Of a DNA stretch of 38,958 nt, positions 3,057 through 28,510 are shown one piece after another. The DNA lies in assembly GCA_043779265.1 (NCBI GenBank), contig JAYWEM010000096.1, forward strand, positions 1-38,958, given 5' to 3'. A model generated the notes under the pieces. The model saw only the letters and a list, made by a program, of their open reading frames with translations. It was not told the origin of the DNA and searched no databases. The number at the start of each line of letters is the position of its first letter. Position 1 is the first letter of the stretch. The stretch is from a bacterium (GTDB lineage: Bacteria > Eisenbacteria > RBG-16-71-46). A program made the translations under genes and the position numbers.

Positions 3057-4436
3057 TCAGTTGCCCGCCACCGTCACCGTCCCCACGCTGGCCTGCACCA
3101 TCATCGGCCGTGAGATCACGGTGCCGGCGAGCACCGAATAGCTCCCTGCGAACACCGAGAGCACGGCATTCGCAGGCACGGCGTTGGTACCCTCGAGGAA
3201 CGTGTTCCAGGGGCGCATGAGCGTGCCGCCCTCGGTCATCGGCATCGGGTGATTGTTGTCCACGTGCGTCGTGCCGGCGCCCAGGAAACCGTTGATCACA
3301 TTCTCCAGCGCATCCACCTCGAACGACGTCCCGGCGTTGGCGCCTCCGGTTGTCGTGCAGCCGGCATTCGTGTGGATGCCGAAACAGACGTTCGAAGTCT
3401 CCCAGATGACGGGCCCCCCCGAGTTGCCGCGCTCGGTGTCGACCGCGTAGTCCAGACGGATGTCGAGACCGGCCGCGACCTCACCAGCGAACGGCCCGGT
3501 GCTTGTCTGATTCGTCTGATTGGTCACACCGACATCGGTTCCGAACCCAGTGACGCGAGTGAGTGCATTCACGACTGGCAGCTCTCGTGTGATCCGGAAG
3601 GGCAGGCCGTACACCTGATGCGGCAGCAGGCCGGAGTTGGCATTGGCATTCACGCGGAACACGCACCAGTCCTTGCCCAACCCCTGCCCGGTTCCATCGA
3701 AGCGCCACTGGACGTTGTTCAAGTTGATCGGGAACTGGTCCTGCGGGGCGGCGGCCACCATCGTGCCGTTCGCCTGTGAGGCCGGGACGTTGAACTCGAC
3801 GACGCCGCTCAGGTCGAGGATCCCGTCAGGCAACATCGGGCCACCCTGGTCGGGATCGAGGTCCGCGCAGTGGCCCGCCGTCAGGAAGGCGCCATTGCCG
3901 ATGCGCCATGCGGTGCAGCCGATGTTGAAGATGCGCGCGACCCGATTGTCCGTCGAGGCCACACGGTCGTCGACGGTGCCACACTGCGACTCGGGCTCCG
4001 GAGGCATTCCCACGCCCACGATGGCGCCACGTACTCTCGCCACCACGGCCCGATCGCCCGGCGCCACGATGAGCTTCACGTCGACCCGGTCGCCATTGAA
4101 CACGGCCGACGTGTTCCCCCAGTCCTCGAGCGCGCGGGCATCGAACTGCTGCCAGTCCTGATTCCAATTGGAGCGGATCAGGATGCGACTCGAATCACCG
4201 AGTGAGCACTCGCCGAACACGACGCGCAGCCAGGGAGCCCCCGGCATCTCGATCGCGCCGAGGTCGACCTCGCGCGCGCCCTCACCGGCCTCGCCATCGA
4301 CGAGCCCCGAGGAGCGCGTCACGACCGTCGTGCGCCACAGCGGCGCCTGGCCGCTCGCCACCGCAATGCTCTCCGCTCCGAACGTCGCCACAACGACCAT
4401 CCACGCGATGCTGCAAGCCGAACGTGCTCTCATCAC
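3057..4436 (-). CDS. Secreted trypsin-like (S1) serine protease with N-terminal pro-region and short C-terminal 'PWNT' module
   Basis: Signal-like N-terminus; triad motifs CTAW..FLTAGHC (His), GKDWC (Asp), GNSGGP (Ser); QCGTVDDR at the likely pro/mature junction. Start overlaps the upstream stop. Confidence 0.9.
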   Translation of the reverse strand: MMRARSACSIAWMVVVATFGAESIAVASGQAPLWRTTVVTRSSGLVDGEAGEGAREVDLGAIEMPGAPWLRVVFGECSLGDSSRILIRSNWNQDWQQFDARALEDWGNTSAVFNGDRVDVKLIVAPGDRAVVARVRGAIVGVGMPPEPESQCGTVDDRVASTDNRVARIFNIGCTAWRIGNGAFLTAGHCADLDPDQGGPMLPDGILDLSGVVEFNVPASQANGTMVAAAPQDQFPINLNNVQWRFDGTGQGLGKDWCVFRVNANANSGLLPHQVYGLPFRITRELPVVNALTRVTGFGTDVGVTNQTNQTSTGPFAGEVAAGLDIRLDYAVDTERGNSGGPVIWETSNVCFGIHTNAGCTTTGGANAGTSFEVDALENVINGFLGAGTTHVDNNHPMPMTEGGTLMRPWNTFLEGTNAVPANAVLSVFAGSYSVLAGTVISRPMMVQASVGTVTVAGN

Positions 4437-6292
4437 GGCCCCCTCAGTTCCACAGTGCCACCGTCGGCGAAGACCATCATCGGCTTCGTGATCAAGCCAC
4501 CGTTGGTGTACACGCCCGCCTTCATCACCAGGTCGTTCCCCGGAAATGCGTCATTCACGGCCTCGCTGACGGTGTTCCACGGTCGCTGGGTCGTGCCGAA
4601 CTCGGAACCGAAGTGGGCGACGTCCGCATACACGGCGCGCGGCATGTAGCCGCACCAGAAGCGGAAGTCGCTGCCGTTCTCGCCGCCCCGGTTCGAGGCG
4701 TACATCCCGAAGTACCAGAAGCCCTGCGAGATCGGATCGACCGTGGCACCCGAGTAGTCGCCCCAACGATGCAGCGTCGTGGGCAGATCGGTGGTCGGAT
4801 GGCCCACGTACGCGGTGCCGGCCTGCACCGCGATGCTGGGGCCGAACGCGGGATCGTCCGCCGTGCGCGTTGCGAATCGGTAGTTCGCGAACTCGCCGGA
4901 GCCGGAGCGGCAATAGCCGAGGCCGAACTGGCCTCGCGAGTTCACTGCCACGTTGGGCCAGAAGTGGTAGTTGGCGCCGTCGGTGTAGTCGGACACCCAG
5001 GCCAGAGAGACCGTTGGCCACACGACGCTCAGGTGCACGACGCGCGCCGCACTCTGGGCTCCGCTTCCCACCGTGAGCGGCATCGTCAGTGTGTTGTTCC
5101 GGAAGTACAGACCCAGTTGACCCGCCCCGAAGTTGTCCGCCTGCAGCCGCGCGGGGCCTCCCGATTGCTGCGGGTTGGTGAAACCCGGCGGCGGCGTCGT
5201 GTCCACGGTGCGCCGCGTGAGCGTCGGGCCACCGACCGGAAAATTGCCGGGGAGGCTCACGCCCCACACGCTGATGCGCACGGTATTGGGCGGCGCGACC
5301 ACGCTCTGCCAGGCGGTCATGAACCCATCCACGCCGCCCGCCGGGATGTTGTGCACCTGCGCGACGCGTGTCAGGAACACCGGCTGGCTCGACTCCCCGA
5401 TGACATCACCATAGGTCCAGATGGTGACGGCCTGTCCGGCCACGAGAGCGGTCTTGTCCAGCACCCAGAGGGCATTGGAGTGGTTCGCCGTCGCCGGCGG
5501 AAGAGCGGCCCAGTCCGAGAACGAGATGTAGTTCCCCGTCAGATAGACCGCGCGCGGACCGAAGCCGAGATCTTCGTAGTCGATGCCCTCGCCATCCCAC
5601 TGGTTGGCCATCTGCCCGTAGACATACCAGCCCTGATTCGGATTGCTCGTGATGGAAACCGCGAGTGACCACACGGACTGACGGGCGTTCGGATGGATGT
5701 CGATCGCCATGAGATAGAAACGATTCGTGCCCTCGTCGAACACGACCTTGGGGTCGAAGTGGCCCTTCCAGTTGGCGGTGGCCCCGAGGAGCCCATCGAG
5801 ACTCGAGGTCCAGGTGCGCGTGCCCTGCTTGTCGTAGATGGACACGGTCGAGTTGAACGCGGCGACAAGGTGGGCCGGGCCCGCCGCGATCGTGCAGTCC
5901 CCTGGGACCCACCCGGCCACCTCCTGCACCGTGAAGTTCGTGGTCATGCGTGGCTGATAGGCGTACACCGCCTGGGTCGACTGGCGCGCGAGCGGTCCGT
6001 CGGAGGGCCTGGCGGAGTAAGCGGGCATGAGCGCTCCCAGCGCGCGCTCGGCGTACTCGGGCGAGTCGTTGGGCAGCGGCCATGATGGCTTGGGCTTGCC
6101 CGATGGGACCCGGAATCCATTGAAGCTCGGATCGAAGATCGCCAGTTGCCTCATCTCGACATCGCTCACCACTCGAGGCGTCACGGTGCGCAGCACCGGT
6201 GCCGCGTCGGGCGTCTGCGCGCGAGCATCCCGCACGCCGACCACGGCGAGCACAGCTGTGGTCAGCAGCGCCAATGGGAGAAACGCTCTCAT
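4433..6292 (-). CDS. Secreted RWGDY-type protein (probable beta-propeller) with C-terminal 'PWNT' module
   Basis: Signal peptide ending ARA-Q; motifs PGDCTIAAGP, FDPKVVFD, DYEDLG and HRWGDYSGATVDP; 619 aa; ATGA overlap with the upstream gene. Confidence 0.82.
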   Translation of the reverse strand: MRAFLPLALLTTAVLAVVGVRDARAQTPDAAPVLRTVTPRVVSDVEMRQLAIFDPSFNGFRVPSGKPKPSWPLPNDSPEYAERALGALMPAYSARPSDGPLARQSTQAVYAYQPRMTTNFTVQEVAGWVPGDCTIAAGPAHLVAAFNSTVSIYDKQGTRTWTSSLDGLLGATANWKGHFDPKVVFDEGTNRFYLMAIDIHPNARQSVWSLAVSITSNPNQGWYVYGQMANQWDGEGIDYEDLGFGPRAVYLTGNYISFSDWAALPPATANHSNALWVLDKTALVAGQAVTIWTYGDVIGESSQPVFLTRVAQVHNIPAGGVDGFMTAWQSVVAPPNTVRISVWGVSLPGNFPVGGPTLTRRTVDTTPPPGFTNPQQSGGPARLQADNFGAGQLGLYFRNNTLTMPLTVGSGAQSAARVVHLSVVWPTVSLAWVSDYTDGANYHFWPNVAVNSRGQFGLGYCRSGSGEFANYRFATRTADDPAFGPSIAVQAGTAYVGHPTTDLPTTLHRWGDYSGATVDPISQGFWYFGMYASNRGGENGSDFRFWCGYMPRAVYADVAHFGSEFGTTQRPWNTVSEAVNDAFPGNDLVMKAGVYTNGGLITKPMMVFADGGTVELRGP

Positions 6293-7740
6293 TGCAGGCT
6301 CACCAAGACGAGCACCATGCCGGTGCCGGACTCGAGCGCCGTCATCGCCTTGCCGAGCACCGCGCCGGGGGCACGGTCACGGTCCGACGCCTTCATCGCA
6401 TGTCCGGCGCGAGCCGACGTGGTGAGCAGATCGCCTGCTGAGATCGGCGCATCGGTGGCATCACACTTCACCCAGACGCGGCCGGTCAGGGCCACGGCAG
6501 CCGTGCCCTCGATACGCTCGTCCTTGCTGAGGATGACGCCCGCACTCAGATCGTTCGCGCCACTCACGACGCCCGCGACACGGTGCGAGTACGCCTCGTC
6601 GGACGTGCGCAGATGTCCGACCTGCGCCGGATCGATCGTCAGCACCGTGCCGGGCTCGGGGTTGCCGGCCACATCGAATCGCTCGGCGAGGTCGGCGCCA
6701 CCCACGATCTGCAGCGTCTTGACCCGCACGAGCCCCGCCGTGGCGTCGATCGCGATGCCGCCCGAGGGGCACGAGAACCGGCCGGCAGGCTTGGTGATGC
6801 TGGGCGAGGACGCGTAGATGCCCTCGTTGGGCGTCCCCAGGATCCCGTAGGTGCCCGCGCTCTTGCACTCGCCCGTGACTCCCCAGTTGGTCTGGCTCTC
6901 TCCCGACACGCCACGATCGTCCGTCGAACTGGCGTAGATACCGTTCGAGTTCGCGCTTCCGGTCAGTCCATGCACGTACAACGCCGCGCGGATGCCCGGC
7001 GTGAAGACGCTGCCGGTGGAGACGAACCGTCCGGCGGGGCCGACATTGTTCGCGGCGTCCACGGGATAGACCGGATTCGACATCTTGAACCCGAAGTTGC
7101 CCGCTGAGTAGTGCCTGTCGCTCCACTCGTCGTAGAGGCCGAACCCGCCGACGGCGTCGTTCTGAACGGCGAGTGCGGCGTAGTTGATGTTGTTGTTCTT
7201 GAGCCACAGCGGGTTGCCGCTGGCGCCGGAATCGATCATCAGTCTGCGGTCGACACGTGAAGCGGTACCGATTCCCACGTTCCCCGGATGAGTGATGCCG
7301 AACGTGTCGTTCGTCCACTGGCCGCCGCCCCCGCCGCCCGGCGCACTCAGTGCGTGCAGAGCGTAAGGGGCAGCGGCGAGCAACTGACGCGGCGCGAGCA
7401 GCGTGTAGTCGATCTCCTCGGCGGTCAGCACCTGCATCTCGAGCCACAGCGCCGTACCATCGAACACGCTGCCGAAGTCGAGCTCGACGGTGAACAATCC
7501 CTCGGTCACGACCACGCCTGACAGCGTCACATCGGCGCCCACCTGGTTGCCGGCAGCCGGATCGTCGAAGAGGCGGAAGAGCATCTCGGCTGTGCCGGCG
7601 TGGGGTGCTGCGTCCTTCTGCAGCTTGCCCTGGTAAGTGAAGTTGGTGCCGACAGGCGCGGCCGAGGAGATCGAGACTGCACAGCAGGCCGCGATCGCGA
7701 TCATCGCCGCGGCACGGAACATCCGATCGAGTCTGGACAT
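6289..7740 (-). CDS. Secreted tail-fibre-like protein: FTYQG-type N-terminal domain, fibre repeats, C-terminal peptidase G2-like intramolecular chaperone
   Basis: True start is likely ATG 7740 (SD GGGAG, followed by a signal peptide); 483 aa. NFTYQGKL..FRLFD..GLFTVELDFG..LWLE..PYALHA, a GNVGIGT fibre motif, and GADLAERF..VAGVVS..VALTGRV.VK..GDLLTTS..GHAM..LGKA at the C-terminus. Confidence 0.85.
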   Translation of the reverse strand: MSRLDRMFRAAAMIAIAACCAVSISSAAPVGTNFTYQGKLQKDAAPHAGTAEMLFRLFDDPAAGNQVGADVTLSGVVVTEGLFTVELDFGSVFDGTALWLEMQVLTAEEIDYTLLAPRQLLAAAPYALHALSAPGGGGGGQWTNDTFGITHPGNVGIGTASRVDRRLMIDSGASGNPLWLKNNNINYAALAVQNDAVGGFGLYDEWSDRHYSAGNFGFKMSNPVYPVDAANNVGPAGRFVSTGSVFTPGIRAALYVHGLTGSANSNGIYASSTDDRGVSGESQTNWGVTGECKSAGTYGILGTPNEGIYASSPSITKPAGRFSCPSGGIAIDATAGLVRVKTLQIVGGADLAERFDVAGNPEPGTVLTIDPAQVGHLRTSDEAYSHRVAGVVSGANDLSAGVILSKDERIEGTAAVALTGRVWVKCDATDAPISAGDLLTTSARAGHAMKASDRDRAPGAVLGKAMTALESGTGMVLVLVSLQ

Positions 7741-7768
7741 GGAGAACTCCCGTGAGTGAGGCGTTGAA

Positions 7769-8335
7769 TCAGCGAATGCGAATGAGTCGGAGCGTTGCGT
7801 GGGAATCACCGGCGCGGACCTTGGCGAAGTACATGCCCGGCCCGACCGGGTGGCCGTCGGCGTCGGCGCCATCCCAGATGGCGGTATGGCGCCCGGCACC
7901 CCTCGCGCCATCGACGAGGCGGCGGACGAGCCGGCCATCGACGCCGAAGAGCGCGACGCTCGCCTCGCGTGCCGAGGGCAGGTCGAACTGGATCGACGTG
8001 GAACCGCGGAACGGATTCCCCCCCGAGAGTCGCGCGGCGAACACGAGCGGGACGCCGCCCGGGTTCGTGCCGATCGACGTCGTCGGAGTCGAGGCCGGAT
8101 GCCAGAACCCGCCCGAGAGCGAGTAGGCGCCGCCCGCGAGCGAGCCGGCGTCAGCCTGGCCCGTCGTGCCGCCCACCGAGTAAGCGCCGCCGGTCGCGAA
8201 TGTCTGGCCGCCACCCGTGAGCGTGTTCCACTCGAGGTTGTAGGCGCCGCCCGACTGGGCATGGGCGAGGCTAGGCACCCCGAAGGCGAGAGTGGCGAGC
8301 AGGAGCAGTGGGCGAAGGGCGGTGGGCGGTCGCAT
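7769..8335 (-). CDS. Small secreted protein: Gly-rich 'GGFW' domain plus FlgD-Ig-like C-terminal domain
   Basis: SD GAGGAG; signal peptide ending AHA-Q; QSGGAYNLEWNTLTGGG..GQADAG..YSLSGGFW; then NPFRGST..GRLVRRL..WDG..PGMYF. Confidence 0.85.
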   Translation of the reverse strand: MRPPTALRPLLLLATLAFGVPSLAHAQSGGAYNLEWNTLTGGGQTFATGGAYSVGGTTGQADAGSLAGGAYSLSGGFWHPASTPTTSIGTNPGGVPLVFAARLSGGNPFRGSTSIQFDLPSAREASVALFGVDGRLVRRLVDGARGAGRHTAIWDGADADGHPVGPGMYFAKVRAGDSHATLRLIRIR

Positions 8336-8458
8336 ACGGTCGACTCCTCGGGGACAGAGCGCGGGGATCGAGTCCCCTCACTTCATCCAACCGCCCGAGC
8401 CCATCCGACCGCACACGCGAAATCGAGCAGGAGTCCTAGCGAGCCCCGCCTCGCGTCA

Positions 8459-11400
8459 TCAGCGCCAGTCGCCCGCCGCGACGAATGCCGCCCAGTGGAA
8501 CGGGTGGGTGTCGAGCCCGCGCTGCCGGCGGTCGCGGAGCACTTCGATGCAGGCCGTTCGCACCGACTCGGCCGTGTCGGCACCGCCGATCAGTCGCGCC
8601 GTGTAGAGCTGCAGCATCCAGGCCTTTGTGGCCTGATCATCCACCGCCCACAGGCTCATGACCATGGTCCGGAGTCCCGCTCGGCGGAACGCCCTCTGGA
8701 GCCCCTGCACCGCCTCGGTCCCGCTGGGATCGGAGAGTCCCGTCTCGCACGCCGAGAGCACCGCCCACTCGGTGCCCGTCAGGTCGAGCGACGTGATCTC
8801 CTCGGCGGTCAGGAAGCCATCGTCCGCCCCCTTCTCTCCTTCGACATTCGCGCCGGCCAGTGCGAGGCCGGGAAGTTGGGCGATTCGTCGTGCCGCGCTC
8901 GGGCGGCTTCCGCTCACGACTGCACCGATTGCGCGCAGGCCGGGCCCCGATGACGCGAGTCGCTCGCCGCCCAATGCGAATCCATGTGTCGCCACATGCA
9001 ACACGCGGCGCCCCGGCGCGAGACGCTTGAAGGCCGCCTCGCTCGCAGCCACTCCGGTGAACTCGATCACATCCGTTGCATCGGCCGAGCTCGAGGCTCG
9101 CCATAGCGACGCGATCTGCCCGACCTCGGCCGCCGTCTGGGGAAGCGGCTCGAATCGAAGTCGCGTCGAGTCCGACGGGCTCGTTCGCGTGGTCGTCCCG
9201 AACGTGAGCGCAAGCGGCGTCGAAGGAGCCGAGTCCTCCGCGCGCTCGAAGTCGGCGCCACCCAGCGCCAGCAGACCACGCCCGGCTCGTTCACCTTGTC
9301 CCCACGGGAGCAGGTCGCGTTCGGCGGTCAGCCGATGGAGTGTGGCGCCGCGCTCCACCCGATAGCCGCCACGGGGATCTGGCAGCGCCATGAAATTGAC
9401 CGCGTGCAGCGCGCCGTCGGGCACGACGAACACGCGCCGCGCGCCGCTCAGGAGCAGGGCCATCGGATCGAGCGCCAGTGAACGCACCGTGAGCCCGAGG
9501 GCGGTGCAGCGACGCTCCGCTGCGAGGGCCAGCCGTGCGTCTGCGGATGGCGGCGTGGCACACGCCTCGAGCCACCGGAAGATCGCGACCTCCAGCCGAG
9601 CCGCCGTACCGAGCGAGACGATGTCCGGTGCGCTCGCTCCCGCTCGGAGCACCAGCGCCGAGTAGCGCTGCGAACTCGACCGCGAGGAATCGGACTCGAT
9701 CGACTCGTTGAGACGGTCGCCCGGGAGTTCATGCCGGATGTAGGAGATCATCGCCGTGCCAGCTGGAAGTGCAGCGGCAACGCCGGCGTAGCCCGCATCG
9801 GAGCGTTGCAGGCCGAGCCCGAAATGCGCGCTTCGATCGGCCAGGGCCCGCTCGGCTGATTCTCGCCGCTGGCGAGCCTTGGCGACGAGCGAGTCCGGCG
9901 CGCGCTCCTGGCGCAGCGTCTCGACCAGTGCGCTCGAGAGTGCTTCGCGAGCCGCCTCGAGCTCCTGGACGGATTCGGCGAGCGATGGATCGTGGCTTGG
10001 CAACGCGCGGCGCTCATCCGCCAGCTGATCCAGCACGAGAAGACGCGCGCGCATGACGGCATCGGCCAACTCGACACGGGCCTCGGGCGCGATGTCGTCC
10101 GGCCCCACCGCAAGGGCGAGCATCACGTCGAGCCCCGATGCGCGACTGCGCTCGAGCGTCAGGGCCTCATGCTCCGAGAGCGAGCGAGCGCTCTGCCGCA
10201 TCACATCGAGGCTCGCAGCCTCGAGCCGGCGGGCATCCGCCCACGCCTCGGCGTGGAGCCCACGCTCGACGCGCACCGTCGCGCGATGGGCCAGGGCATC
10301 GAGCGTGTGCGGCGACGATGGGCCGAGCAGGCTGTCCGCCAATGAGAAGGCCCGCTCGAACGAACTGAGTGCGGCGAACAGGCGGCCGTCGGCGCGGGCG
10401 ATCGCGCCCTCGACTTTCCACGCCTCGATCAGGTCGAGCGCGAGACTCCCGAAGTTCGCGGAGTCCACGAGCGAGAGGGTCCGCTCGATCTCGTGCCGAG
10501 CCTCCTCGCGCTCTCCGGTCAACAGCATGGCCTGGGCGACTCGCGTGCCGTTCCATAGGCCATAGCCCGCATGGGGCCCGAACACCTTCTCGCGAAGCAC
10601 GCGAGCTTCCTCGAGGAATCGGCGGGCGCGGACGCCGTCTCCGATACCCAGACACGCGGAGCCGAGATTGTTGAGCGCGATGGAGAGGTCGAATGGAATC
10701 TGCCTCGGAGCGCCGCGCTGGATCGCCACCGCGCGCTCGTAAAGCGGCAGGGCGCGCTCGAAGTCACCCAGATTGTTCAGGGCGCTCCCCAGCGCGGACA
10801 TGGCGACGGCCACGACCGGATGATCGGGCCCGAACAGGCGCTCGCGGATCGCCAGCGCACGCTCGGCGAATCGGCGTTGCGCCACGTAGTCGCCGGCATC
10901 CGCCGCCGCCATGGCACTCAAGAACATCGTGGTGGCCAGATCGGGGTGTTCGCCACCGAGTGCGAGTTCCTGGATCTGCGCCGCGCGCGCGTACATCGAG
11001 CGAGCGCCTTGCAGATCACCTGCCAGCGCTCGGGCCCGCGCGAGATTGCGGCACGCCTGGCCGAGTTGCAGCGAGTCGGGCTTTGCCCTCGATTCGGCGA
11101 GCTGCACGACGCGGGCGAGTTCCTCGCAGGCGCGATCCCCCTCACGGCGCTCGGCGAAAACGTTCCCGAGCGTGCCGCGCAACTGGATCTCGATCGTCGT
11201 GTCGCGCTCGACGGAGGTCTCGTGAAGGAGCAGGGCCTCAGCGACCGTGGACTCGGAACGCGCCAACTGCTTGCTGACGCGTCGCGACTCGGCGAGCCAC
11301 GCGAGCGTCCGGACGACCGGCAGCACCTCCGGCCGGCGTTCGGATCGGCGAAGGGCGAGCGTGCGCGTGAAGATCGAGTCAGCGGCCGGGTACTCAGCGC

Positions 11401-11659
11401 GAGCCAGCCGGATGCGTCCGAGCAGCTCGAGGACATCGGCGGCATCAGCCGGACGAACACGCGGGTCCTCCGAGCGGCGCGCTGCGAGGCGCTCGGCGAG
11501 CGCGAGCAGCCCAGGGTCCGTCGGGCGGAGCGAGACGAACTGCGCTTTCAGTTGGGGCAGCGAGTCGGGTACGGCTCGCGCGCACCAGCCGGTTCCGGGC
11601 AGCACCGAGCCGAGCAGCATCACCACCAGGATCTGCGCACAGCCGAGGCGGGGTCTCAC
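8459..11659 (-). CDS. TPR-repeat CHAT-domain (caspase-like) protease with predicted signal peptide
   Basis: Multiple long TPRs (HPDLATT, HPVVAVA, IALNNLG). CHAT motifs VVPDGAL, LHVATHGF (His), VLSACETG (Cys), SLWAVDD and HPFHWAAF. Hydrophobic N-terminus. Confidence 0.93.
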   Translation of the reverse strand: MRPRLGCAQILVVMLLGSVLPGTGWCARAVPDSLPQLKAQFVSLRPTDPGLLALAERLAARRSEDPRVRPADAADVLELLGRIRLARAEYPAADSIFTRTLALRRSERRPEVLPVVRTLAWLAESRRVSKQLARSESTVAEALLLHETSVERDTTIEIQLRGTLGNVFAERREGDRACEELARVVQLAESRAKPDSLQLGQACRNLARARALAGDLQGARSMYARAAQIQELALGGEHPDLATTMFLSAMAAADAGDYVAQRRFAERALAIRERLFGPDHPVVAVAMSALGSALNNLGDFERALPLYERAVAIQRGAPRQIPFDLSIALNNLGSACLGIGDGVRARRFLEEARVLREKVFGPHAGYGLWNGTRVAQAMLLTGEREEARHEIERTLSLVDSANFGSLALDLIEAWKVEGAIARADGRLFAALSSFERAFSLADSLLGPSSPHTLDALAHRATVRVERGLHAEAWADARRLEAASLDVMRQSARSLSEHEALTLERSRASGLDVMLALAVGPDDIAPEARVELADAVMRARLLVLDQLADERRALPSHDPSLAESVQELEAAREALSSALVETLRQERAPDSLVAKARQRRESAERALADRSAHFGLGLQRSDAGYAGVAAALPAGTAMISYIRHELPGDRLNESIESDSSRSSSQRYSALVLRAGASAPDIVSLGTAARLEVAIFRWLEACATPPSADARLALAAERRCTALGLTVRSLALDPMALLLSGARRVFVVPDGALHAVNFMALPDPRGGYRVERGATLHRLTAERDLLPWGQGERAGRGLLALGGADFERAEDSAPSTPLALTFGTTTRTSPSDSTRLRFEPLPQTAAEVGQIASLWRASSSADATDVIEFTGVAASEAAFKRLAPGRRVLHVATHGFALGGERLASSGPGLRAIGAVVSGSRPSAARRIAQLPGLALAGANVEGEKGADDGFLTAEEITSLDLTGTEWAVLSACETGLSDPSGTEAVQGLQRAFRRAGLRTMVMSLWAVDDQATKAWMLQLYTARLIGGADTAESVRTACIEVLRDRRQRGLDTHPFHWAAFVAAGDWR

Positions 11660-11699
11660 GGGGCGTTCGCCTCATCGTCACCCGCCAGGACGCGCGGGG

Positions 11700-13514
11700 T
11701 CAGGGGACCGGGTTCTCCAGCACCAGCAGTCTCATCCAGACCGCGCGTCCCTCGGATGAGGTCGCCAAGTCGCGAGCGAGTGCCGAAAGGATGCCCGTTC
11801 GATCGCTCTGCTGCAATGACGCAGACTTCCGCACTCCCCCCACGCCGCGAAGGCGCGCGAGCGCATCGGCGGGCAGCGTCCGATAGGCGACCGGGGCATC
11901 CGCCGCTGCCTCCGGGATGGCAGCCACCGCCTCGGCCACCGGCGCGAGCGGCTTCCGGGAGGCCAGCAAGAGGAAGGTCTCGCGCCCACCCGCACTCGTC
12001 ACCTGCCACGTCAGTTGGCCTGCGCCGTCGCGGCCTGGCAGGCGATGCGGCGTCGCGGCGGCCAATGGATTGCCCGAGCCTCTTCCCGACAGCGGGAACA
12101 GCACGAACACCGCGCCGGTCTCATCCTCGCTCAACACGTACACGTGCACGATCTCTCTCGAATCCAGCTCGAGCGCCAGTTCGTCGCCGGGTGCGACCAG
12201 GTCCCCACTGCGCAGCACTTCGCGAGAACCCGCCGTGACTCGCAGCAGCGCGGCCGCCACCTCGGGCGCCCCCGCGGTCGCCACCGCCGGTGTGGCAGGG
12301 GTCGAGGTCGGTGAGGCTTCACTTGCGATGACATCGTCCGACAGCACGGTCGCAGGAGGCGCGCCCACGTTCGACTCGCGGCCAGCACGAGTGGCGAGCA
12401 GGGCCACCACCACGATCGCGGCCGCGGCCAGTCCCGCCAACGTCAGCCGGGAGCGGCGTCCAGCGCCGACGACTTCGTCCGCGTCCACAGCTTCGGGAGC
12501 CGCGATCGCCCGGGCGAGTGAACGCTCGAACTCGGCCATCGTCGCGAAGCGCCGCGCGCGATCGGGGTCGCAGGCGCGCTCGACCACCTCGACCATCGCC
12601 GCCGGTAGATCCGTGCGCGCATCCCGAAGCGAGACACGCTCACCGCGCTCGAGCCGTCCGCGCATCTCGTCGATCGAGCCAGGCTCGATCGGGTAGCGCG
12701 CCGTGAGCAGTCGGTAGAGCACGATGCCGAGCGAGTACACATCCGAACGCACATCCGGCGCCTCGCCGGCCAGCACCTCGGGTGCCATGAACAGCGGCGT
12801 CCCATAGGCGATCAGGTCGGTGACGCGCGCATCCTGAGCGCTGCCGAAGTCCATCAGCACGATTCGGCCCGAGCGACTCGCCGAGCCGGAAGCGGAGCCG
12901 CCTTCTCGCATCACGTTGCGCGTTGTGACGTCCCCGTGCAGCAGCCCGGTCGCGTGCACCGCCGCGAGTGCACTGCAAAGATCGGCCCCGACACCGGCGG
13001 CCTCTCGTGGCCCCAGCGGTCCCTGCGACGTGATCCACTGTTCGAGCGTGCTGCCGTCGATCAACTCGGTCCACAGCCCCGCGCGGCCCTCGTGCTCGTC
13101 CGCCCCCAGGATCGAGAGGACATGCGGATGGCGCACCCGAGCGAGCCGGCGAGCCTCCTCGATCCAGCGCGACGTGCCGAACGAGGGCACCCCCAAGTCG
13201 GCGCGGCGCAGCTTGAGCGCCACCTCTCGCTGCAGCGTCGGGTCCCAGGCCCGATGGATCTCGGCGAACGAGCCCTCACCGATCCGCTCGAGCGCCTGCA
13301 GCGTCCCCCACGTGAACAGCACGCCCGATGGGACGGCTTCGCGGGCACTCGTCAGCGCCGCCTGCAGCGCGGCGATCTCCTGCAATCGCGCCAGTACCGG
13401 GCGTCGTTCGGGCGTGCGGACCTGCTCACGCTCCCAGTCGACGGGCGTGCGATCGGCGACGGCACCCGCCACGTCCACCAGAGGCGCATCCGCTTCGGGT
13501 GTTTCGTCAGCCAC
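11700..13514 (-). CDS. Membrane Ser/Thr kinase with C-terminal DUF4384-like extracytoplasmic domain
   Basis: IGEGSF, VALK, HGDVTTRN, DFG, GTPLFMAPE and SDVYSLG; one TM helix (LTLAGLAAAAIVVVALLA); C-terminal PGDELALEL..VYVL..GAVFVLFP..GRETFLLLAS resembling DUF4384. Start overlaps the ECF stop. Confidence 0.9.
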   Translation of the reverse strand: MADETPEADAPLVDVAGAVADRTPVDWEREQVRTPERRPVLARLQEIAALQAALTSAREAVPSGVLFTWGTLQALERIGEGSFAEIHRAWDPTLQREVALKLRRADLGVPSFGTSRWIEEARRLARVRHPHVLSILGADEHEGRAGLWTELIDGSTLEQWITSQGPLGPREAAGVGADLCSALAAVHATGLLHGDVTTRNVMREGGSASGSASRSGRIVLMDFGSAQDARVTDLIAYGTPLFMAPEVLAGEAPDVRSDVYSLGIVLYRLLTARYPIEPGSIDEMRGRLERGERVSLRDARTDLPAAMVEVVERACDPDRARRFATMAEFERSLARAIAAPEAVDADEVVGAGRRSRLTLAGLAAAAIVVVALLATRAGRESNVGAPPATVLSDDVIASEASPTSTPATPAVATAGAPEVAAALLRVTAGSREVLRSGDLVAPGDELALELDSREIVHVYVLSEDETGAVFVLFPLSGRGSGNPLAAATPHRLPGRDGAGQLTWQVTSAGGRETFLLLASRKPLAPVAEAVAAIPEAAADAPVAYRTLPADALARLRGVGGVRKSASLQQSDRTGILSALARDLATSSEGRAVWMRLLVLENPVP

Positions 13515-14082
13515 GGGGCTCCTCCATCGTCGCGGCGAGTTGGGCGATCGCCCGTGCCACCATCATGCGAGCCGCGTTCGCGGTGCTCTTGCCCGCCGCC
13601 TCGGCGATCTGCTCGTAGCTGCATCCCATCTCGACGCGCATGAACACCGCCTCCTGCTGTTCCTCGCTCAGGCGGTCGAAGGCCGCCTCGTAGCGATCGA
13701 GCATGTCCCTGCCCAGAGCGGACTCGAGCGGTGAAGGCCCCGGGTCCTGCAGCCCCTCGCCGATCTCCTCCTGCTGCCCCCGGGTCGCCGCCCGAGCGAT
13801 CTCGTCGCGCATGGCGTTGATGAGGATGCGCCGGAGGTAGGCGAGGAACGCCCCCTCGTGGCGGGGCTCGAACCTCTCCAATTGCTTCAACACCCTGAGC
13901 ATCGTGATCTGCACAAGATCATCGGTGTCGGCGAATCCCCGAGCCTTGGCGGGCAGCCGCCCATGCGCCCATCGGCGCAACTGGGGCAGGTAGCGCTGGA
14001 GCAGCCGATCGCGCGCGGCCTCGTCCCCCCCGCGGATACGCTGCAGGAGGACCGCGGTGGACTCGGGGCTCGAGGGGTTCAT
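13507..14082 (-). CDS. ECF sigma factor of the kinase-associated type
   Basis: GDEAARDRLLQRY, DTDDLVQ and FLAYLRRILIN..RD (sigma2); LSEEQQEAV..SYEQIAE (sigma4); 191 aa. Confidence 0.93.
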   Translation of the reverse strand: MNPSSPESTAVLLQRIRGGDEAARDRLLQRYLPQLRRWAHGRLPAKARGFADTDDLVQITMLRVLKQLERFEPRHEGAFLAYLRRILINAMRDEIARAATRGQQEEIGEGLQDPGPSPLESALGRDMLDRYEAAFDRLSEEQQEAVFMRVEMGCSYEQIAEAAGKSTANAARMMVARAIAQLAATMEEPRG

Positions 14083-20813: not shown

Positions 20814-21749
20814 CTACTTGGAGAGCCCGAACAGCGCCGAGGACACCCAACCCTCATTGCCCAGTTCGTCCGACACCTTCCACCACACGCCCTCTTTCTC
20901 ACCCGTCGGGTAGAGCATCATGCCGGGATCGAGGTCCCGCACCACCGCGGACTTGGGATCGGCCTTCGAGTACATGCGACCGGGCTTGGCCATCGTGACG
21001 GCCTGCGCGACATTGTCGCCCTTGGCGTCGGGCGTGTTGGTCTGCACTTCCTCGATCAGCTTCTTGACGGCATCGAGGTAGGCCATCGCCACCACCTGCC
21101 CGATCTCGGTGTTGGAGTAACTGCTCGCGCCGAGGGCGGCGAAGCCACCGAAGTAGCTGCCGGCACCCGCGCCCCAGCCGAGGTTCGTCTTCTTGGCGTG
21201 CCCCTGCACGATCGCCACCTGCTCGGTCGAGCGGATGTCCGTGAGCGTCAGCACGACATCGGCGGTCTTGCTCTTCAGATTGACGCCGCCGACCAATGCC
21301 CCGGCGCGGCCGCCGACGAGGCCACCGATCGCGGCGCCGAGGCGCTTGCCGCCCGAGTTCGCGTTCTTGTTGACGATATCCGGCACCAGCACGTAGTCGG
21401 CCGCCTTCATCTGGCCCTTGCCGACGTTGGAGCCGACCCGCGTCTCGCCCGAACCTGCGAGCGCGCGCTCGGCCTTGGCGGCATCGAGGCCCTTGCCCCG
21501 GTCGAGCAGCGTGAAGCACTTGCACTCGTTCAGGTAGGCCTTGATGACCGCCTCGGGCGACTCGAGCCCGTACGACGTCCACCACTTGTTCTCGGGCTCA
21601 TGCACCGCCAGCGTGCCGATCTTCTTGGTACAGACGGGGAGCTTCGATTCGTCGCCATCCTTGGCCGAAGCCATCGGCGCAACTCCCAGCACGGACACGG
21701 CCAGCAGCATCGCGGCGGCGGAATGGATGATCGAGATGGAACGGTTCAT
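20814..21749 (-). CDS. CsgG/HfaB-like secreted protein with C-terminal SH3-like domain
   Basis: SD GGAGGAGG; signal peptide; CFTLLDRG..ERAL..KAADYVL..Gly-zipper..LTDIRSTEQV; C-terminal MYSKADPKS..WWKV..EGWVSS. Confidence 0.85.
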   Translation of the reverse strand: MNRSISIIHSAAAMLLAVSVLGVAPMASAKDGDESKLPVCTKKIGTLAVHEPENKWWTSYGLESPEAVIKAYLNECKCFTLLDRGKGLDAAKAERALAGSGETRVGSNVGKGQMKAADYVLVPDIVNKNANSGGKRLGAAIGGLVGGRAGALVGGVNLKSKTADVVLTLTDIRSTEQVAIVQGHAKKTNLGWGAGAGSYFGGFAALGASSYSNTEIGQVVAMAYLDAVKKLIEEVQTNTPDAKGDNVAQAVTMAKPGRMYSKADPKSAVVRDLDPGMMLYPTGEKEGVWWKVSDELGNEGWVSSALFGLSK

Positions 21750-21972: not shown

Positions 21973-24651
21973 TCAGCGGCTCAGCAGACCCGTCCAGTCG
22001 AGCAGGAGCCGCAGCGATCTCGCTTGGACCGCGCCGCTCGGCCGGCTCACCAGGAATCGCTCCCCATCTCTGGTGTCCATGGACCTCACGCCGAGCGGGA
22101 TCCTGAAGAGTCGTTCAGCCGCACCGGGCTCGAGCCGGTCGCCGACCAGACGAAGCGGCACGCTGACCAGATCACCCGATCCGTCCGGATACAGCAACTC
22201 CTCACCTCGCCGACCCCAGTGGATCGTCAGACCACGGGCCCGGCCGACCTGGACGCGATGGCCCGGCTGAGGATACGAGTCGATGAAGACCGAGTAGTGC
22301 CCCGATTCGGCCTGCGTCCAAGCAGCCCACTTCCCGTCGGGCGAGATCCGCGCGACGCGCTCGAACGAGGGACTCCTGACGTAGGATTCAGGCGCGCCGC
22401 CCTCGATCGGAATCGTCCACAGATCCCACTGGGTCCCCTCCTTACGCTCGATCGGCTTGCTCATCGCCGCAAGCAGCAGCGTGCGTCCGTCCGGGGCCCA
22501 GTCGGCGACCTCCTGGAACTGGAAGTCCGAGGTGGCGAGCGGCGCCTCGCGACCGCTGCCGGCGGGATCGATCAGCTGCATGCGAGGCCCTTCGGGCGTC
22601 TCGACATCGAGTGCGATCGAGCGCGCATCCGGCGACCATGCAGTGCTGAGCCAGGGCCGGATGCCGCGCTTGAGCCTCGTCGCAATGGATCGATCGAGGT
22701 CGATGCGCCACAGGTCATGGCCTTGCATCGCCGTAGCCGAGCGCCCATCTCGCGAGAGCCGCCCGACTTCCCAATCGCCCTCGGTCAGCTCGATCCGGCC
22801 GCGCGTCGCACCACTGCGGTCCAACCACTCGAGTTCTGCGATAGGCGGCTGGATGACCGGCAGCATCAATCGCCGGTTCCTCGAGGCCGAGGCCACCGGC
22901 TCAGCCGTCAGGTCGGAGGCGGCCGGGGCATCCATCAACCCGATCTGCTCGCCGGTCAGCTCGAGTCGCCTGGTGTCGAATCGCTGCGCCATCACCTTGC
23001 CGCCCTGCGTGAACACGAGGTAGCCGGGCTCGGCGAACACCGGCGCACAGTCCGCCTCCATGATGCGCTTGACCTTGCTGCTGCCGAGCGAGCCGACGAA
23101 CACGTCGAAGCCGCGCGGCCCGGCCGGAAGCGCGACGAACAGGAAGTGCTCCCCGTCGGGGAGGAAACAGGGGAATCGATGCGCCACGTGCCGAGCAACG
23201 GTGTCCAGTGTCGTCGCCTGCTCGATGGCCCCGCCGCTGGCGCGCATGCGAATCAACGGCCCCGAGGCCTCTGGAGCGAACACGATGACTTCCTTGCGCC
23301 CCCAACTGGCGCCACGGCCCCAGCTGGCATCGGCAATGCGCGTGGTCGTGCCGCCGGAGATCGGCAAGCGGAGGAGGCCGTCGCCTGCGAAGAAGACGAT
23401 GGACCGCCCATCGGGCGACCACGCCGGCATACTTGCATCCTCCGTACCGGGCAACGAGATCGGACTCTCCGAGCGGAGATCCCAGTACCAGAGCGCCTTG
23501 GTGCCCCCGGACTTCGAGGCGACCGAGACGAGCGCGTCCCCATTGGGCGAAAGAGCATTGTCGGACCAGACATCGGAAACTTGTAGATCGCTCGGCACCG
23601 GGACTCGCAGGACCATCGCAGGCGCGCGGCGGCCGAGCATCAGGACGGCCATGCTCGCCGCTGCGATCAGGCCCAGCAGCCCGACGATCCACGGCAGGCG
23701 TCCGAGCCAGACGCTCGCCGCGCCGCGCTTCGCGTGACTCGCCGTGACCGCGTGCAGCCCCGAGCCCGAGCCGCCCTCGGCGATCCACTGCAGCTGCAAC
23801 TTCACGTCATGCGCGCTCTGGATACGATCGGAGGCGTCCTTCGTGAGACACGCCGTGACCACGCGTTCGAGCCCCGGCGGCGAGAGCGGCGCCACCTGCG
23901 AGATGGGCGCAGGAGTCACGTGCATGATCGCCGCGATCAGCGAGGCTTGGCTCGTGCCCTCGAACGCGCGCTGTCCGGTGGCCATCTCGTGCAGCACACA
24001 ACCCAGTGCCCACAGGTCGCAGCGGGCATCCGCCTCGCGGCCCTCCAGCTGCTCGGGCGCCATGTACTGGAACGTGCCGACGATGGTGCCCTCGGTGGTC
24101 AGAGGCGCCGCCACCGTGGGCGACTGCGTGAGCGCCGCCTGCGTGATACCGCTGCCACCGGCGGGACCGCTCATGCCTGTGGCGCGAGCGAGGCCGAAGT
24201 CCATCAACTTGGCGCCGCTCTTGGTGAGCATGACGTTGCCGGGCTTGAGGTCTCGATGCACGACGCCGGCGCGATGGGCACGATCGAGTGCGTCCGCGAT
24301 CTGTGCGCCCAGCTTGAGCACCTCGGCCGCGGGCAGCGCGCCCTTCGTGAGTCGCTGCGCCAGCGTCTCGCCTTCGACCAGTTCGAGCACGAGATAGTCG
24401 GTCTCACCCTCTCGGCCCACGTCGTGCAACGTGCAGATGTGCGGATGATTGAGACTCGAGACGGCGCGTGCCTCGCGCTCGAATCGCGCCCGCAGCTCGG
24501 GGTTGGCCGAGAGGTGCTGCGGCAGCACCTTGATCGCCACGTCGCGACCGAGACGCGAGTCGTGGGCGCGGTACACCTCGCCCATGCCGCCTGCCCCGAG
24601 GGGCGAGACGATCTCGTAGGGACCGAGCCGGGCGCCGGGCGTGAGCGTCAT
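21973..24651 (-). CDS. Membrane Ser/Thr kinase with C-terminal TolB/PD40-like beta-propeller
   Basis: Start at ATG 24651 (TGATG coupling). [27 protein letters not shown] and YMAPE; TM helix; WSPDG, FLPDG and ISPDG repeats. Confidence 0.95.
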   Translation of the reverse strand: MTLTPGARLGPYEIVSPLGAGGMGEVYRAHDSRLGRDVAIKVLPQHLSANPELRARFEREARAVSSLNHPHICTLHDVGREGETDYLVLELVEGETLAQRLTKGALPAAEVLKLGAQIADALDRAHRAGVVHRDLKPGNVMLTKSGAKLMDFGLARATGMSGPAGGSGITQAALTQSPTVAAPLTTEGTIVGTFQYMAPEQLEGREADARCDLWALGCVLHEMATGQRAFEGTSQASLIAAIMHVTPAPISQVAPLSPPGLERVVTACLTKDASDRIQSAHDVKLQLQWIAEGGSGSGLHAVTASHAKRGAASVWLGRLPWIVGLLGLIAAASMAVLMLGRRAPAMVLRVPVPSDLQVSDVWSDNALSPNGDALVSVASKSGGTKALWYWDLRSESPISLPGTEDASMPAWSPDGRSIVFFAGDGLLRLPISGGTTTRIADASWGRGASWGRKEVIVFAPEASGPLIRMRASGGAIEQATTLDTVARHVAHRFPCFLPDGEHFLFVALPAGPRGFDVFVGSLGSSKVKRIMEADCAPVFAEPGYLVFTQGGKVMAQRFDTRRLELTGEQIGLMDAPAASDLTAEPVASASRNRRLMLPVIQPPIAELEWLDRSGATRGRIELTEGDWEVGRLSRDGRSATAMQGHDLWRIDLDRSIATRLKRGIRPWLSTAWSPDARSIALDVETPEGPRMQLIDPAGSGREAPLATSDFQFQEVADWAPDGRTLLLAAMSKPIERKEGTQWDLWTIPIEGGAPESYVRSPSFERVARISPDGKWAAWTQAESGHYSVFIDSYPQPGHRVQVGRARGLTIHWGRRGEELLYPDGSGDLVSVPLRLVGDRLEPGAAERLFRIPLGVRSMDTRDGERFLVSRPSGAVQARSLRLLLDWTGLLSR

Positions 24652-27350
24652 CAGCGGCTCTTCCTCGCCCGGATCATCTCGTCGATGCGCGCGCCCCAAC
24701 CGACTGATACCGCCACTTCACGACGCTCCTCGGTCCCGGTGGGCGGTCGCGTGAAGAGGAAACGATCATGTCGATGATCGTAAGAATAGTCCCGGAACGT
24801 GATGTCCGTTGGGGAGCCGGGCGGCTCGAACAGCGCGACCGGCTGGGAGAACACGAGATCCCCGCTCTGCTCACGGACCATGACGGACTTGAGCAGTTCG
24901 CGTTCCACGAAGAACAACTCGGAGCCTCCACGGCCCCAGCGCGCGCCGCCGCCGCCTTGTGTACTCACTTGCCAGGGCCCCCTCGTGCCGTCGAGGCTGC
25001 GCACGAATACCTCCTCGCGCCCGGTTCGATTCGAGATATAGACGAGCCACCTGCCGTCGGGCGAGAAATTGGCCGCCAGTTCATACATGTTCGGGCCCGC
25101 ATCCGTCGCGATCTGCTCTGAGCGAGGGTTCTCCCCCAGAGTGGCGAAGTACATGCGGCCGCTCGCCGATCCCCAGTCGGCGAAGAGCACACGCGAGCCG
25201 TCCCGCGAGACATCCCCGAGAGTGGTGCTCTGAGAAACCTCGAGAAGCGTACGCGCGCCTCGCCCCGAGTGGAGTCGGCGTTCCTCCAAGAATCCGTGGC
25301 CGAGCGAATCCGCGTGCGCGTGGATGAAGCCTGAACCATCGGGCAACCACGCGACATTGTTCGTCCTGCCCGAGTAGGTGAGTCGCCGCATCCCGCCGCT
25401 TGCGAGATCCGCGAGCCAGATGTCGAGTGCACCGCCCCCCGGACCCACTCCGACCAATGCGCTCGAGCCATCCGGTGAGATGGCGAGATCTCGATAGTCG
25501 CCGGGTCGGATCGGGGTCGGGCTCCAAGCACCGGAGCGATCGAACCAGCCGACCTCACGCTCAATTCCGAAAGCATCCGAGGGCACCCAGGCAAGCGTAC
25601 CGTCGCGGGCGAGACTCATGAACGAAGCTCCCGAGGAGGCCTCGCCGCCGACCGCCTCCACAACCGGAACGGGCTCGTCGACGACCTTGGGATTCCTGGG
25701 ATCGATCCTCACGGCGAAGAGCGTTCCCTTGCGATCGAAGACCAGATGGCCTGGCGCCGCCCACATCGCGCGCCGGGCACCTCGCAGCAGGTTCCGGCGT
25801 TCGCCCGTCCGGACCGAGACGGCGTCGATGTCGGAACCATCGTAGTCGCCAGGACTGCTCTTGAGCCCCACCGTGAACACCACCCACGGCCCACCATCGA
25901 GTGCATCCGGCCAGCGATGCGTGCGCTCTTGCCGCGTCGAGTCGAGCTGCGTGAGCGATTGGGCAGGTCCGCCTCCCTTGGGAAGTCGAGCCAGCGGTTG
26001 CGTCGCATCGGGGCTGAAGACGATCGTGCCGTCATCCAACCACACGCCGCCTCGGTCCTGCGTGCCGGGCGAGAGTGCGATCGGAGCGCCGCCATGGACT
26101 GACACCTTGAGCAGGTTCTGCGTGTCGAAGTAGGCGACCCACTCACCATCGGGAGAGAAGAACAGATCGCGGGCATCCTGGGTTCCCGGAATCGAGATCT
26201 CCTCGCGCCGATCCAGTCGCCGGACGTGCACTTGCAGGCCGTCCTCCGAGCGCGCGACGAATGCGATCGCGCGTCCACTGGGCGAGAGCGCCATGAAGTG
26301 ATTGGAGCCATTCGCTGCGAGTCGTGTTCCGTGCGGAAGCATGACGCTCAGTTCCTGCGTGGCCGAGGTGGGCGCGGGGCGCTGGAGGGAGCTCACCGCG
26401 AGACCCGTGATCGCGCTGGCCAGCACCACCGCCGACACGAGGCCCACGACTCCCGCCCCAGCTGGCTTGGAAGCCGGAGCGATCGCATCAGGCTCGCGCT
26501 CCTTCAACTCGAGTCGCGCATCTCCGATGTCGCGCAACCGATCACGCGCGTCCTTGCGAAGGCAGCGCTCGAGGACTCGGCGCACCGCGCTCGGCGTCGT
26601 ATCGGGCAGAGCGCTCCAATCCGGCTCGCTCTTGAGGATCTGGGCGACCAGGTCCGACACGGTCTCGCCCGTGTGCAGCGGGCGGCCCGCCAGGCACTCG
26701 TAAAGCACGCAGCCATAGGACCAGATGTCCGTGCGGCGGTCGACGGCTCGGCCACGCGCCTGCTCGGGGCTCATGTAGGCGGCCGTTCCGAGGATCGTGC
26801 CGGCCTCCGTGGCGGCATAAGTCATCGTCGGCGATGCCGAGAGGTTGGCATCGGGCGATGAGCCCCCCGGACCTGCGCTCTTCGCCAGTCCGAAGTCGAG
26901 CACCTTCACCTGCCCCGAGCCGGTGAGCATGATATTTCCGGGCTTGAGGTCGCGGTGGATGATGCCCGCATCGTGCGCGGCTTCGAGCGCCAGCGCGACC
27001 TGGCTCGCCACGTCGATTGCCTCATCCATCGGCAGAGCACCGCGACGCAGACGGTCGGAGAGCGTCATGCCATCGACGAACTCGAGGATGAGATAGCGCT
27101 GACCATCATGCTCCTCGAGGCCGTGGATGCCCGCGATGTTGGCGTGGCTCAAGCTGGCGAGCAGCTTGGCCTCACGCTCGAATCGCGCCAGACGATCGGG
27201 GTCGCGCGCGAACGCGTCGGGCAGCGCCTTGATCGCCACATCGCGCCCGAGCCGCGAGTCGCGAGCGCGGTGCACCTCGCCCATTCCGCCAGCCCCGAGG
27301 GGCGAGACGATCTCGTAGGGACCGAGCGAACTTCCGGGGGTCAGGGGCAT
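24651..27350 (-). CDS. Membrane Ser/Thr kinase with C-terminal TolB/PD40-like beta-propeller (paralog of the neighbour)
   Basis: [27 protein letters not shown] and YMSPEQ; TM helix; repeated FSPDG motifs. Confidence 0.95.
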
Positions 27351-27464
27351 CGCCCGGGAACCTACATCAGAGAGCGAGCGGAGGTGGAGGTGAGCTTCGC
27401 GGTCTCAGCGACTCGTTCGCGCGCGGAACGTCTCGTCACGGACTTCAGGGCCGCGACACCCCGC

Positions 27465-28364: not shown

Positions 28365-28510
28365 CGGTCCTCCCATTCGGAGTCGTGCCGATGAAGCCGC
28401 GCTGCGACGCACGGATCTCGGCTGACGGTCTGCCGGTGGCTCGCCCCCGCCCCTACGCCTGTTCGGCCCGGGATACACGCAGGGACTCGTCTTCGCTTAG
28501 GCTGCAGGTG

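Follow-up and report, generated by a model that had tools for sequence, protein, structure and literature searches.

Extracytoplasmic function (ECF) sigma factors of group ECF43 are paired with Hanks-type kinases, as in EcfP-PknT of Vibrio parahaemolyticus and EcfK-PknS of Xanthomonas citri, and further kinase-linked groups are ECF59, 61, 62, 217 and 283 (PMC8999054, PMC7826278). Of these, ECF59, 61, 62 and 217 are listed as 100% Planctomycetes (PMC7826278 supplement). EcfP is phosphorylated at position 3 of the motif that corresponds to DAED, and in other groups a nearby Ser/Thr may be used (PMC8999054). Other sigma factors are connected with CHAT proteases. An example is the DdvA-DdvS system of Myxococcus xanthus, in which a periplasmic TPR-CHAT protein acts upstream of an ECF factor and cleavage-driven activation is proposed (PMC11506125). 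In the Type III-E Craspase, Csx29 (TPR-CHAT) cuts Csx30 at Met in a small loop inside its C-terminal domain, between residues 427 and 429 (PMC10028731), and some Csx30 C-terminal domains are DUF4384 (bioRxiv 2022.08.17.504292). DUF4384 is also found on the putative anti-sigma factors of ECF25, and ECF54 has CHAT and subtilase neighbors (PMC7826278 supplement). The present analysis concerns a locus with an ECF sigma factor, a membrane kinase with a DUF4384 ectodomain and a TPR-CHAT protease, encoded in a stretch of 38,958 nucleotides (the window; contig JAYWEM010000096.1 of assembly GCA_043779265.1) from a bacterium of the Eisenbacteria. A preliminary description of the window knew of no characterized system combining all three parts. 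No paper on the triad, or on the sequence tag described below, was found in a literature search with little coverage of subscription papers and none of bioRxiv supplements. In the accessible part of a kinase atlas, kinase-DUF4384 is recorded simply as an architecture (bioRxiv 2025.01.12.632604).

The three genes are intact and linked on the minus strand, as judged from open reading frames and Pfam matches. The first encodes an ECF sigma factor of 191 amino acids (13507..14082; Pfam Sigma70_r2 E 4e-15, and r4_2). The second, overlapping it by 8 nucleotides, encodes a single-pass Hanks-type Ser/Thr kinase of 604 amino acids (11700..13514) with Pkinase at residues 74-324 (E 2e-29) and DUF4384 (PF14326) at residues 441-522 (E 2e-9). 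After a gap of 40 nucleotides follows the gene of a likely exported, caspase-like TPR-CHAT protease of 1066 amino acids (8459..11659; TPR_12 E 2e-34; CHAT, PF12770, residues 728-1064, E 2e-52). The tight linkage reported earlier is thereby borne out. The reading favored here, whose chance is put slightly short of even, is that the exported CHAT protease cuts the kinase after Arg556 and that the kinase phosphorylates Thr53 of the ECF factor, which turns on adjacent genes for secreted proteins. The preliminary description had proposed along similar lines that TPR sensing activates CHAT, which cleaves the kinase ectodomain and leads to phosphorylation or release of the ECF factor; the comparative evidence supports this in part.

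The locus resembles each of the known systems in part. As in ECF43, the ECF gene is followed at position +1 by the gene of a kinase with one membrane helix, there is no separate anti-sigma gene, and a Thr in region 2.2 is conserved. Unlike in ECF43, the ectodomain is DUF4384 instead of TPR and a partner protease is present; in the accessible descriptions, ECF43-type systems link the kinase to the ECF factor without a protease. The modeled fold of the CHAT protein matches DdvA. DdvA itself, however, carries a zinc anti-sigma domain, a membrane helix and TPR-CHAT in one chain and has no kinase, whereas in the window the CHAT protein has a gene of its own, begins with a signal-like sequence and gives no zf-HC2 match. 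The likeness to the Craspase (Csx29, Csx30 and CASP-sigma) is a TPR-CHAT protease aimed at a loop in the C-terminal domain of a sigma-binding protein, which is a prediction in the window. The Craspase is cytoplasmic and RNA-triggered, needs Cas7-11 and has no kinase or membrane step, and a shared tag is not mentioned in the portion of its description that was available. With ECF25 the locus has in common a DUF4384 ectodomain on a membrane ECF regulator, and with ECF54 the CHAT genes beside ECFs, but the accessible supplement neither mentions a kinase for these groups nor combines DUF4384 with CHAT. The system would thus amount to a DdvA divided into separate proteins, or to a Craspase placed outside the cytoplasm, acting through a kinase step like that of ECF43, but it belongs to none of these groups.

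The same genome has the complete triad twice more, on contigs C113 and C84, and a fourth pair of ECF and kinase genes lies at the end of contig C41. At E up to 1e-60, the kinase has 124 matches in 67 of the 151 genomes of the phylum. By these recurrences, the linkage exceeds chance. About 9 kb were read around 80 of the 120 matches outside the genome itself, and these were classed together with the four own loci, giving 84 loci; because kin among them are not independent, the locus counts describe the sample only. An ECF gene lies directly upstream of the kinase in 77 of the 84. Seventy of the kinases carry DUF4384, five of which were left out for too little downstream DNA, and 14 carry other tails, four of them with stretches too short to score; among 12 scanned, these tails are FG-GAP, PD40, or AAA/NB-ARC with TPR. 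An adjacent CHAT gene is present for 37 of the 65 DUF4384 kinases (32 downstream, 2 upstream, 3 convergent; 28 with none in the stretch read) and for 0 of the 10 sister kinases with other tails, so that the triad is conserved, a point that the preliminary description had named as a check, and CHAT goes specifically with the DUF4384 tail. The CHAT profile matches 70 of the 151 genomes, including those of 27 of the 28 kinases without an adjacent copy, and for five of these 27 the CHAT gene is a few kb upstream, beyond the first stretch. No fixed third partner other than CHAT appeared among 46 proteins scanned, the genes after CHAT-less kinases being mostly unrelated.

Outside the phylum, a GTDB scan was made with an alignment of 12 ECF sequences (80 of 237 loci kept; a single-protein query gave no matches). 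It recovered the triad in Acidobacteriota, e.g., loci L193, L194, L207, L208, L218, L227, L237 and L258; in Latescibacterota, Krumholzibacteriia and Gemmatimonadota it recovered pairs of ECF and kinase genes. The sampled loci are thus from Ca. Eisenbacteria, Acidobacteriota and others, and not from Proteobacteria or Planctomycetes, unlike ECF43 and the planctomycete kinase-linked groups. The kinases of L207, L208, L218 and L227 are about 1060-1100 amino acids long, with extra domains before DUF4384, and similar homologues have TPR repeats. The ectodomain profile describes a family of 787 clusters at 50% identity (E up to 1e-30), mostly from uncultured phyla.

The kinase and the protease share a short tag, which the preliminary description does not mention. 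In the kinase, a near-invariant Arg-Gly-(Ile/Val)-Gly motif begins at R556 (11823..11849, minus strand) in an exposed loop, with a predicted cleavage site at R556/G557; the Arg is present in 37/37 CHAT-adjacent kinases and in 26/28 other DUF4384 kinases. The same motif in the CHAT protein begins at R909 (8909..8935, minus strand), in the loop 17 residues past the catalytic His, with the Arg in 37/37 kinase-adjacent CHATs, and is a predicted self-cleavage or mimic site. The eight residues after the Arg co-vary between the two proteins: over 37 loci, the similarity is 22.4 for cognate pairs and 15.1 for shuffled ones (p<=0.0005), and the effect remains when similar kinases are grouped into 28 or into 14 clusters (largest p 0.0015). 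The four residues before the Arg show no co-variation (p 0.46-0.77). A held-out set of 31 kinases that lack a CHAT in the first stretch, 30 with the Arg and 28 scored, was compared with previously unused CHATs of the same genomes, six of them within about 12 kb, and reached 25.7 vs 19.7 +/- 1.2 (p 0.0002). In all seven genomes with 2-4 triads, the best one-to-one assignment of tags is the true pairing, which is one of 13,824 combinations. At least eight residues after the Arg are common to L090 and L153, and likewise to L055 and L126, and in 31 of the 37 pairs no other Arg site in the cognate CHAT scores as well as the tag. Such co-variation indicates, at the level of sequence, a direct relation between the protease and the ectodomain. 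Local gene conversion was considered as a source of the tag and rejected: the two window codings differ widely, and the matches persist between contigs.

Restriction of the co-variation to the residues after the Arg fits a free new N-terminus left by a cut at R556. Clan CD proteases usually read P4-P1, and the departure from this habit can also be taken to mean that the receptor is not cut at all. The tag would then be a binding peptide or pseudo-substrate, the kinase loop displacing the protease's own copy to form a co-receptor, with the protease cutting something else. The CHAT tag is modeled partly as a beta-strand, followed by disorder, which would suit such docking, and in the gingipain prodomain an Arg loop is described that inhibits without being cut (PMC4357240). 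A scissile bond is nevertheless what one would expect of an invariant Arg with small residues behind it, exposed in a loop of either protein, and the catalytic dyad is intact in 100 of 100 CHATs. Docking without a cut is regarded as unlikely.

Loss of the tag bears on the direction of the effect. Four or five kinases have lost it (L086, L133, L196 and L217, with L111 frameshifted); L086, L196 and L217 have no adjacent CHAT, and L133 adjoins a CHAT with a degenerate tag. Conversely, 12 CHATs without a clear tag, by pattern, have no DUF4384 kinase in the surrounding stretch examined. Taken with the 28 of 65 kinases that lack a CHAT in the first stretch, the tag-less kinases suggest that the kinase may work without a close protease, as would be expected if the intact ectodomain were the active sensor and CHAT disarmed or reset it by cleavage. 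Most of the CHAT-less kinases, however, have a tag-matched CHAT elsewhere in the genome, and the known CHAT-sigma systems, as far as their accessible descriptions go, activate by cleavage; such an off-switch is judged quite improbable. Among the unpaired genes of this genome, the orphan CHAT G000:C85 (L005) and the contig-end kinase G000:C41 (L003) have the first six tag residues in common and may be partners. Tag-less CHAT genes are found at G000:C104:22477-25607 (L006) and on C10 (L004), C12, C16 and C134; the one on C104 comes after a gene whose start resembles a zinc-finger anti-sigma domain, and the one on C10 after an ECF and a zf-HC2 gene.

The protease has the catalytic residues of a CHAT enzyme and, as far as its sequence indicates, is likely exported. 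The intact His/Cys dyad described at the outset consists of H892 in HVATHG (8984-8986) and C971 in LSACETG (8747-8749), both invariant in 100/100 homologues, and Asp1008, invariant in 99/100, is presumably the equivalent of the Arg-binding S1 Asp of separase. Acidic S1 residues are described for Arg-specific clan CD enzymes in the available part of PMC4357240. A structure model of residues 467-1066 (mean predicted local distance difference test, pLDDT, 84.3) matches Csx29, which is among the top hits, separase, and DdvA (E 6e-8); a PDB sequence search with the CHAT profile gave 0 matches at E up to 1. The signal-like N-terminus that had been noted is also seen by a hydropathy heuristic: residues 1-29 (11573..11659, minus strand) show the basic, hydrophobic and AxA pattern of a signal peptide, with the best 19-mer at residue 5 (mean Kyte-Doolittle hydropathy, KD, 1.82). 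By the same kind of heuristic, which had no negative control, a hydrophobic 12-mer lies close to a start codon in 32 of the 33 adjacent CHATs that are full-length, four incomplete copies being left out. A further indication comes from a pair of cysteines in two loops of the CHAT domain. Of 99 proteins scored (9 of 108 were not), 76 have both and 21 neither, and one of the two discordant cases is a parsing error; the cysteine-less proteins, the window CHAT among them, are scattered over some eight positions in a quick tree, many of whose forks are weak. A pair gained and lost together suggests a disulfide, and thus an oxidizing compartment for the CHAT family. Another disordered loop of the CHAT protein, residues 812-832 (window about 9164-9226), has an Arg in 26 of the 37 relatives and may be a second self-cleavage site.

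The kinase has the Hanks-type core (Lys, Glu, the catalytic Asp and Asn, and the DFG Asp), and K101, E120, H193, D195, N200 and D222 are invariant in 84/84 homologues. Its catalytic loop, residues 193-200 (window 12915-12938), has Thr two residues and Arg four residues after the Asp. Arg in the latter position is the arrangement of tyrosine kinases, and it is present in 27 of the 31 homologues without the catalytic-loop Lys. The single transmembrane helix and the DUF4384 domain are as first described. The helix, residues 357-375 (12390..12446, minus strand; mean KD 2.47), is the only strong hydrophobic helix in the kinase, and 69 of the 70 DUF4384 kinases have a helix score of at least 1.6 at this position. 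The Ig-like (immunoglobulin-like) DUF4384 ectodomain comprises residues 417-604 (11703..12266, minus strand; PF14326; AlphaFold pLDDT 84.6), and a fold search with it returned beta-sandwich/Ig-like matches with Z up to 8.8, none distinctive. In the model, R556 closes the helix 549-557, residues 559-571 are disordered and residues 592-601 form the final strand. Because the piece after R556 supplies the last Ig strand, a cut at this site, which likely falls in a loop inside the Ig-like domain, would not shed the ectodomain; the C-terminal piece would probably stay bound, with a free new N-terminus.

On the cytoplasmic side, the extra N-terminal helical segment of the preliminary description, VAGAVADRTPVDW, which starts at residue 15, belongs to a helical module of residues 12-55 (13350..13481, minus strand), whose pattern is conserved in 84 kinases and which is present in 110 of 120 homologues. 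It is predicted to dock the sigma factor. An alternative is that it is a zinc-free anti-sigma domain, that CHAT makes a site-1 cut, and that intramembrane proteolysis then frees the sigma factor, a course proposed for DdvA, with the kinase activity being secondary. The occurrence of DUF4384 on the putative ECF25 anti-sigma factors and the precedents of DdvA and Csx30, all as given in the accessible texts, speak for this, and, aligned by eye, the pattern falls in the register expected from the N-terminus of RseA, with weak agreement. Profile comparison gives no significant match: hhalign reaches P 0.068 against RseA and against a 14-sequence zf-HC2 profile, and controls reach P 0.12. No Pfam anti-sigma family is found in 63 members, and a PDB profile search returned chance matches only, although short helical domains of this kind are hard to detect by homology. 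An Atlas search matched solely other kinases and unnamed clusters, with a resemblance to the N-termini of planctomycete and acidobacterial kinases. R556 is also about 180 residues from the membrane, and in the model a cut there would leave the fold in place. Moreover, seven sister kinases with AAA or NB-ARC and TPR tails have the same module and no clear membrane helix after the kinase domain (KD <=1.47), and the Thr53 equivalent is kept in all six ECFs detected beside them, which argues that the common output is kinase activity and not intramembrane release. The anti-sigma alternative is given a low probability. These fusions of the same kinase core (L106-L108, L112 and L114-L116) are apparently soluble STAND-type sensors.

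The ECF factor scores above the cut-off of TIGR02937; its best NCBIfam match is TIGR02984, below the cut-off (89 vs 183.75 bits). The motif DTDDLVQ, which had been reported in place of the canonical DAED, is present from residue 52 (DTDD, residues 52-55, 13918..13929, minus strand). The idea of a replacement holds in part: DTDD keeps the acids at positions 1, 3 and 4, and the Thr is at position 2, as placed by an alignment by eye to DVPD of E. coli RpoE in a non-significant BLAST segment. This Thr53 (codon 13924-13926) is the predicted phospho-acceptor. T53, R48 and D55 are invariant in 77/77 kinase-linked ECFs, residue 52 is Asp or Glu in 73/77, and residue 54 is Asp in only 41/77. ECF43 factors have a region 2.2 without acids and the phospho-Thr at position 3. 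The window ECF differs from them, because T53 is at position 2; it also keeps the flanking acids and has normal sigma2 and sigma4 Pfam domains. Phosphorylation at T53, beside the variable position 3, is plausible from the sequence.

The course of events would be as follows. An envelope signal, probably read by the TPR part, would activate the CHAT protease, which is probably Arg-specific and would also cut its own tag copy at R909. The cut at R556 would keep the ectodomain attached and bare a tethered new N-terminus, whose first 8-10 residues would act as a pairing code. Binding of this N-terminus by the protease or by a neighboring ectodomain may then cluster the kinases. The kinase, holding the sigma factor via its N-terminal helical module, would phosphorylate Thr53 in region 2.2, and the sigma factor is predicted to transcribe from a promoter described below. 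In animal protease-activated receptors, a cut after Arg unmasks a tethered N-terminal ligand. These are unrelated G protein-coupled receptors acted on by serine proteases, and here the protease carries the same peptide, so the likeness is one of the presumed step only.

The candidate target promoter, TGTGCGGT-N14-CGGTT (8389..8415, minus strand), was recognized from the motif TGTGCRDT-N13/14-MSGTT upstream of the gene at 7769..8335 and of five of its seven aligned homologues. A matrix from these six sites matches 12 of 103 held-out 230-nucleotide regions directly after other modules. With the spacing changed to five alternatives it matches 0-6, with the strand reversed 1, and among 824 random windows 13. 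Raising the score threshold leaves 9 regions, vs 0-2. Some of the hits come from kin (L067, L069 and L110; L092 and L098), and three from Acidobacteriota. The window site at 8415-8389 scores best in the genome and is predicted, from these sequence matches, to be the target of the ECF factor. The first predicted target gene (7769..8335, minus strand) encodes 188 amino acids with a signal-like start and a C-terminal FlgD-Ig domain (Pfam FlgD_ig). The second (6289..7740, minus strand) encodes a predicted secreted protein of about 483 amino acids with a signal-like start, a fibre-like C-terminal half and no Pfam family; its Atlas look-alikes, which are leads only, include PTL_trimer and Peptidase_G2 clusters, and it co-occurs with the first. 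In several genera, and in a second order, homologues of both genes lie after or beside the module, that of the first gene following it in L039-L042 and adjoining it in L045, L216 and L061.

Several observations weigh against the favored reading. The tags of the window pair itself score 10, below the shuffled mean, and the window kinase tag scores 25 with the paralogous CHAT of C84; 9 of the 37 pairs score under 15, 12 of 18 kinases find their one best partner in their own neighbor, and a sign test on disjoint sister pairs gives 10 for, 4 against and 4 ties (p 0.09). Arg specificity is deduced from Asp1008 and from the invariance of the Arg in the tag, and the specificities of CHAT proteases vary (PMC11506125). 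The kinase is non-RD, with Thr in place of the catalytic-loop Lys (HGDVTTRN). The position of T53 differs from that of the phospho-Thr of EcfP, the Thr could be structural instead, and, as D52 and D55 are still acidic, the sigma factor could be active even without phosphorylation. The promoter is found after only 12 of 103 modules, and over the whole genome its matches are about as many as background (26 vs 23 and 16). The weak tag match in the window and the sister-pair result would also be expected if CHAT were an unrelated neighbor or a mere regulon member and the tag a low-complexity coincidence. This explanation is very improbable in view of the linkage to the DUF4384 tail, the co-variation, the held-out test and the assignments in seven genomes, to which are added the excess over other Arg sites and the persistence of matches between contigs.

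The surroundings of the triad offer some further observations. A housekeeping-like promoter found by eye (TTGTCG-17 nucleotides-TACACT, 14120-14092, minus strand) ends 9 nucleotides short of the start of the ECF gene and is seen again in L039, L041 and L042. It scores under the threshold of a sigma-70 scan, which gave 0 sites, and suggests that the sensor is made constitutively from a leaderless message. The regions upstream of the ECF genes showed no conserved promoter for autoregulation. After the candidate target promoter, a run of secreted-looking genes covers 3057-8335. Its first protein matches NF058579 PamT weakly (E 0.0024), and the last is a trypsin-like protease (3057-4436). Elsewhere, Pfam identifies a CsgG-like gene at 20814-21749 and, at 21973-28478, a tandem pair of Ser/Thr kinases that carry PD40 propellers and, after them, a PP2C phosphatase, which could reset the ECF-kinase-CHAT system. 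A defense role was rejected: PADLOC on eight window proteins gave only generic kinase models. No CRISPR or CBASS genes were found among 20 window proteins scanned with Pfam, nor were the Craspase families Cas7-11, Csx30 and Csx31 among these 20 or the eight given to PADLOC, and no array search was made.

The triad joins two modes of ECF control that were previously known apart, activation by a kinase and proteolysis by a CHAT protease, and it suggests a role for DUF4384 as the domain on which a CHAT protease acts. R556, R909, C971 and T53 are residues on which the proposal can be tested, and the target promoter is usable as a reporter. That a tethered peptide acts as an address code, which would make the system a new signaling principle, is considered rather doubtful; if true, a swappable tag would let partner specificity be tested directly.

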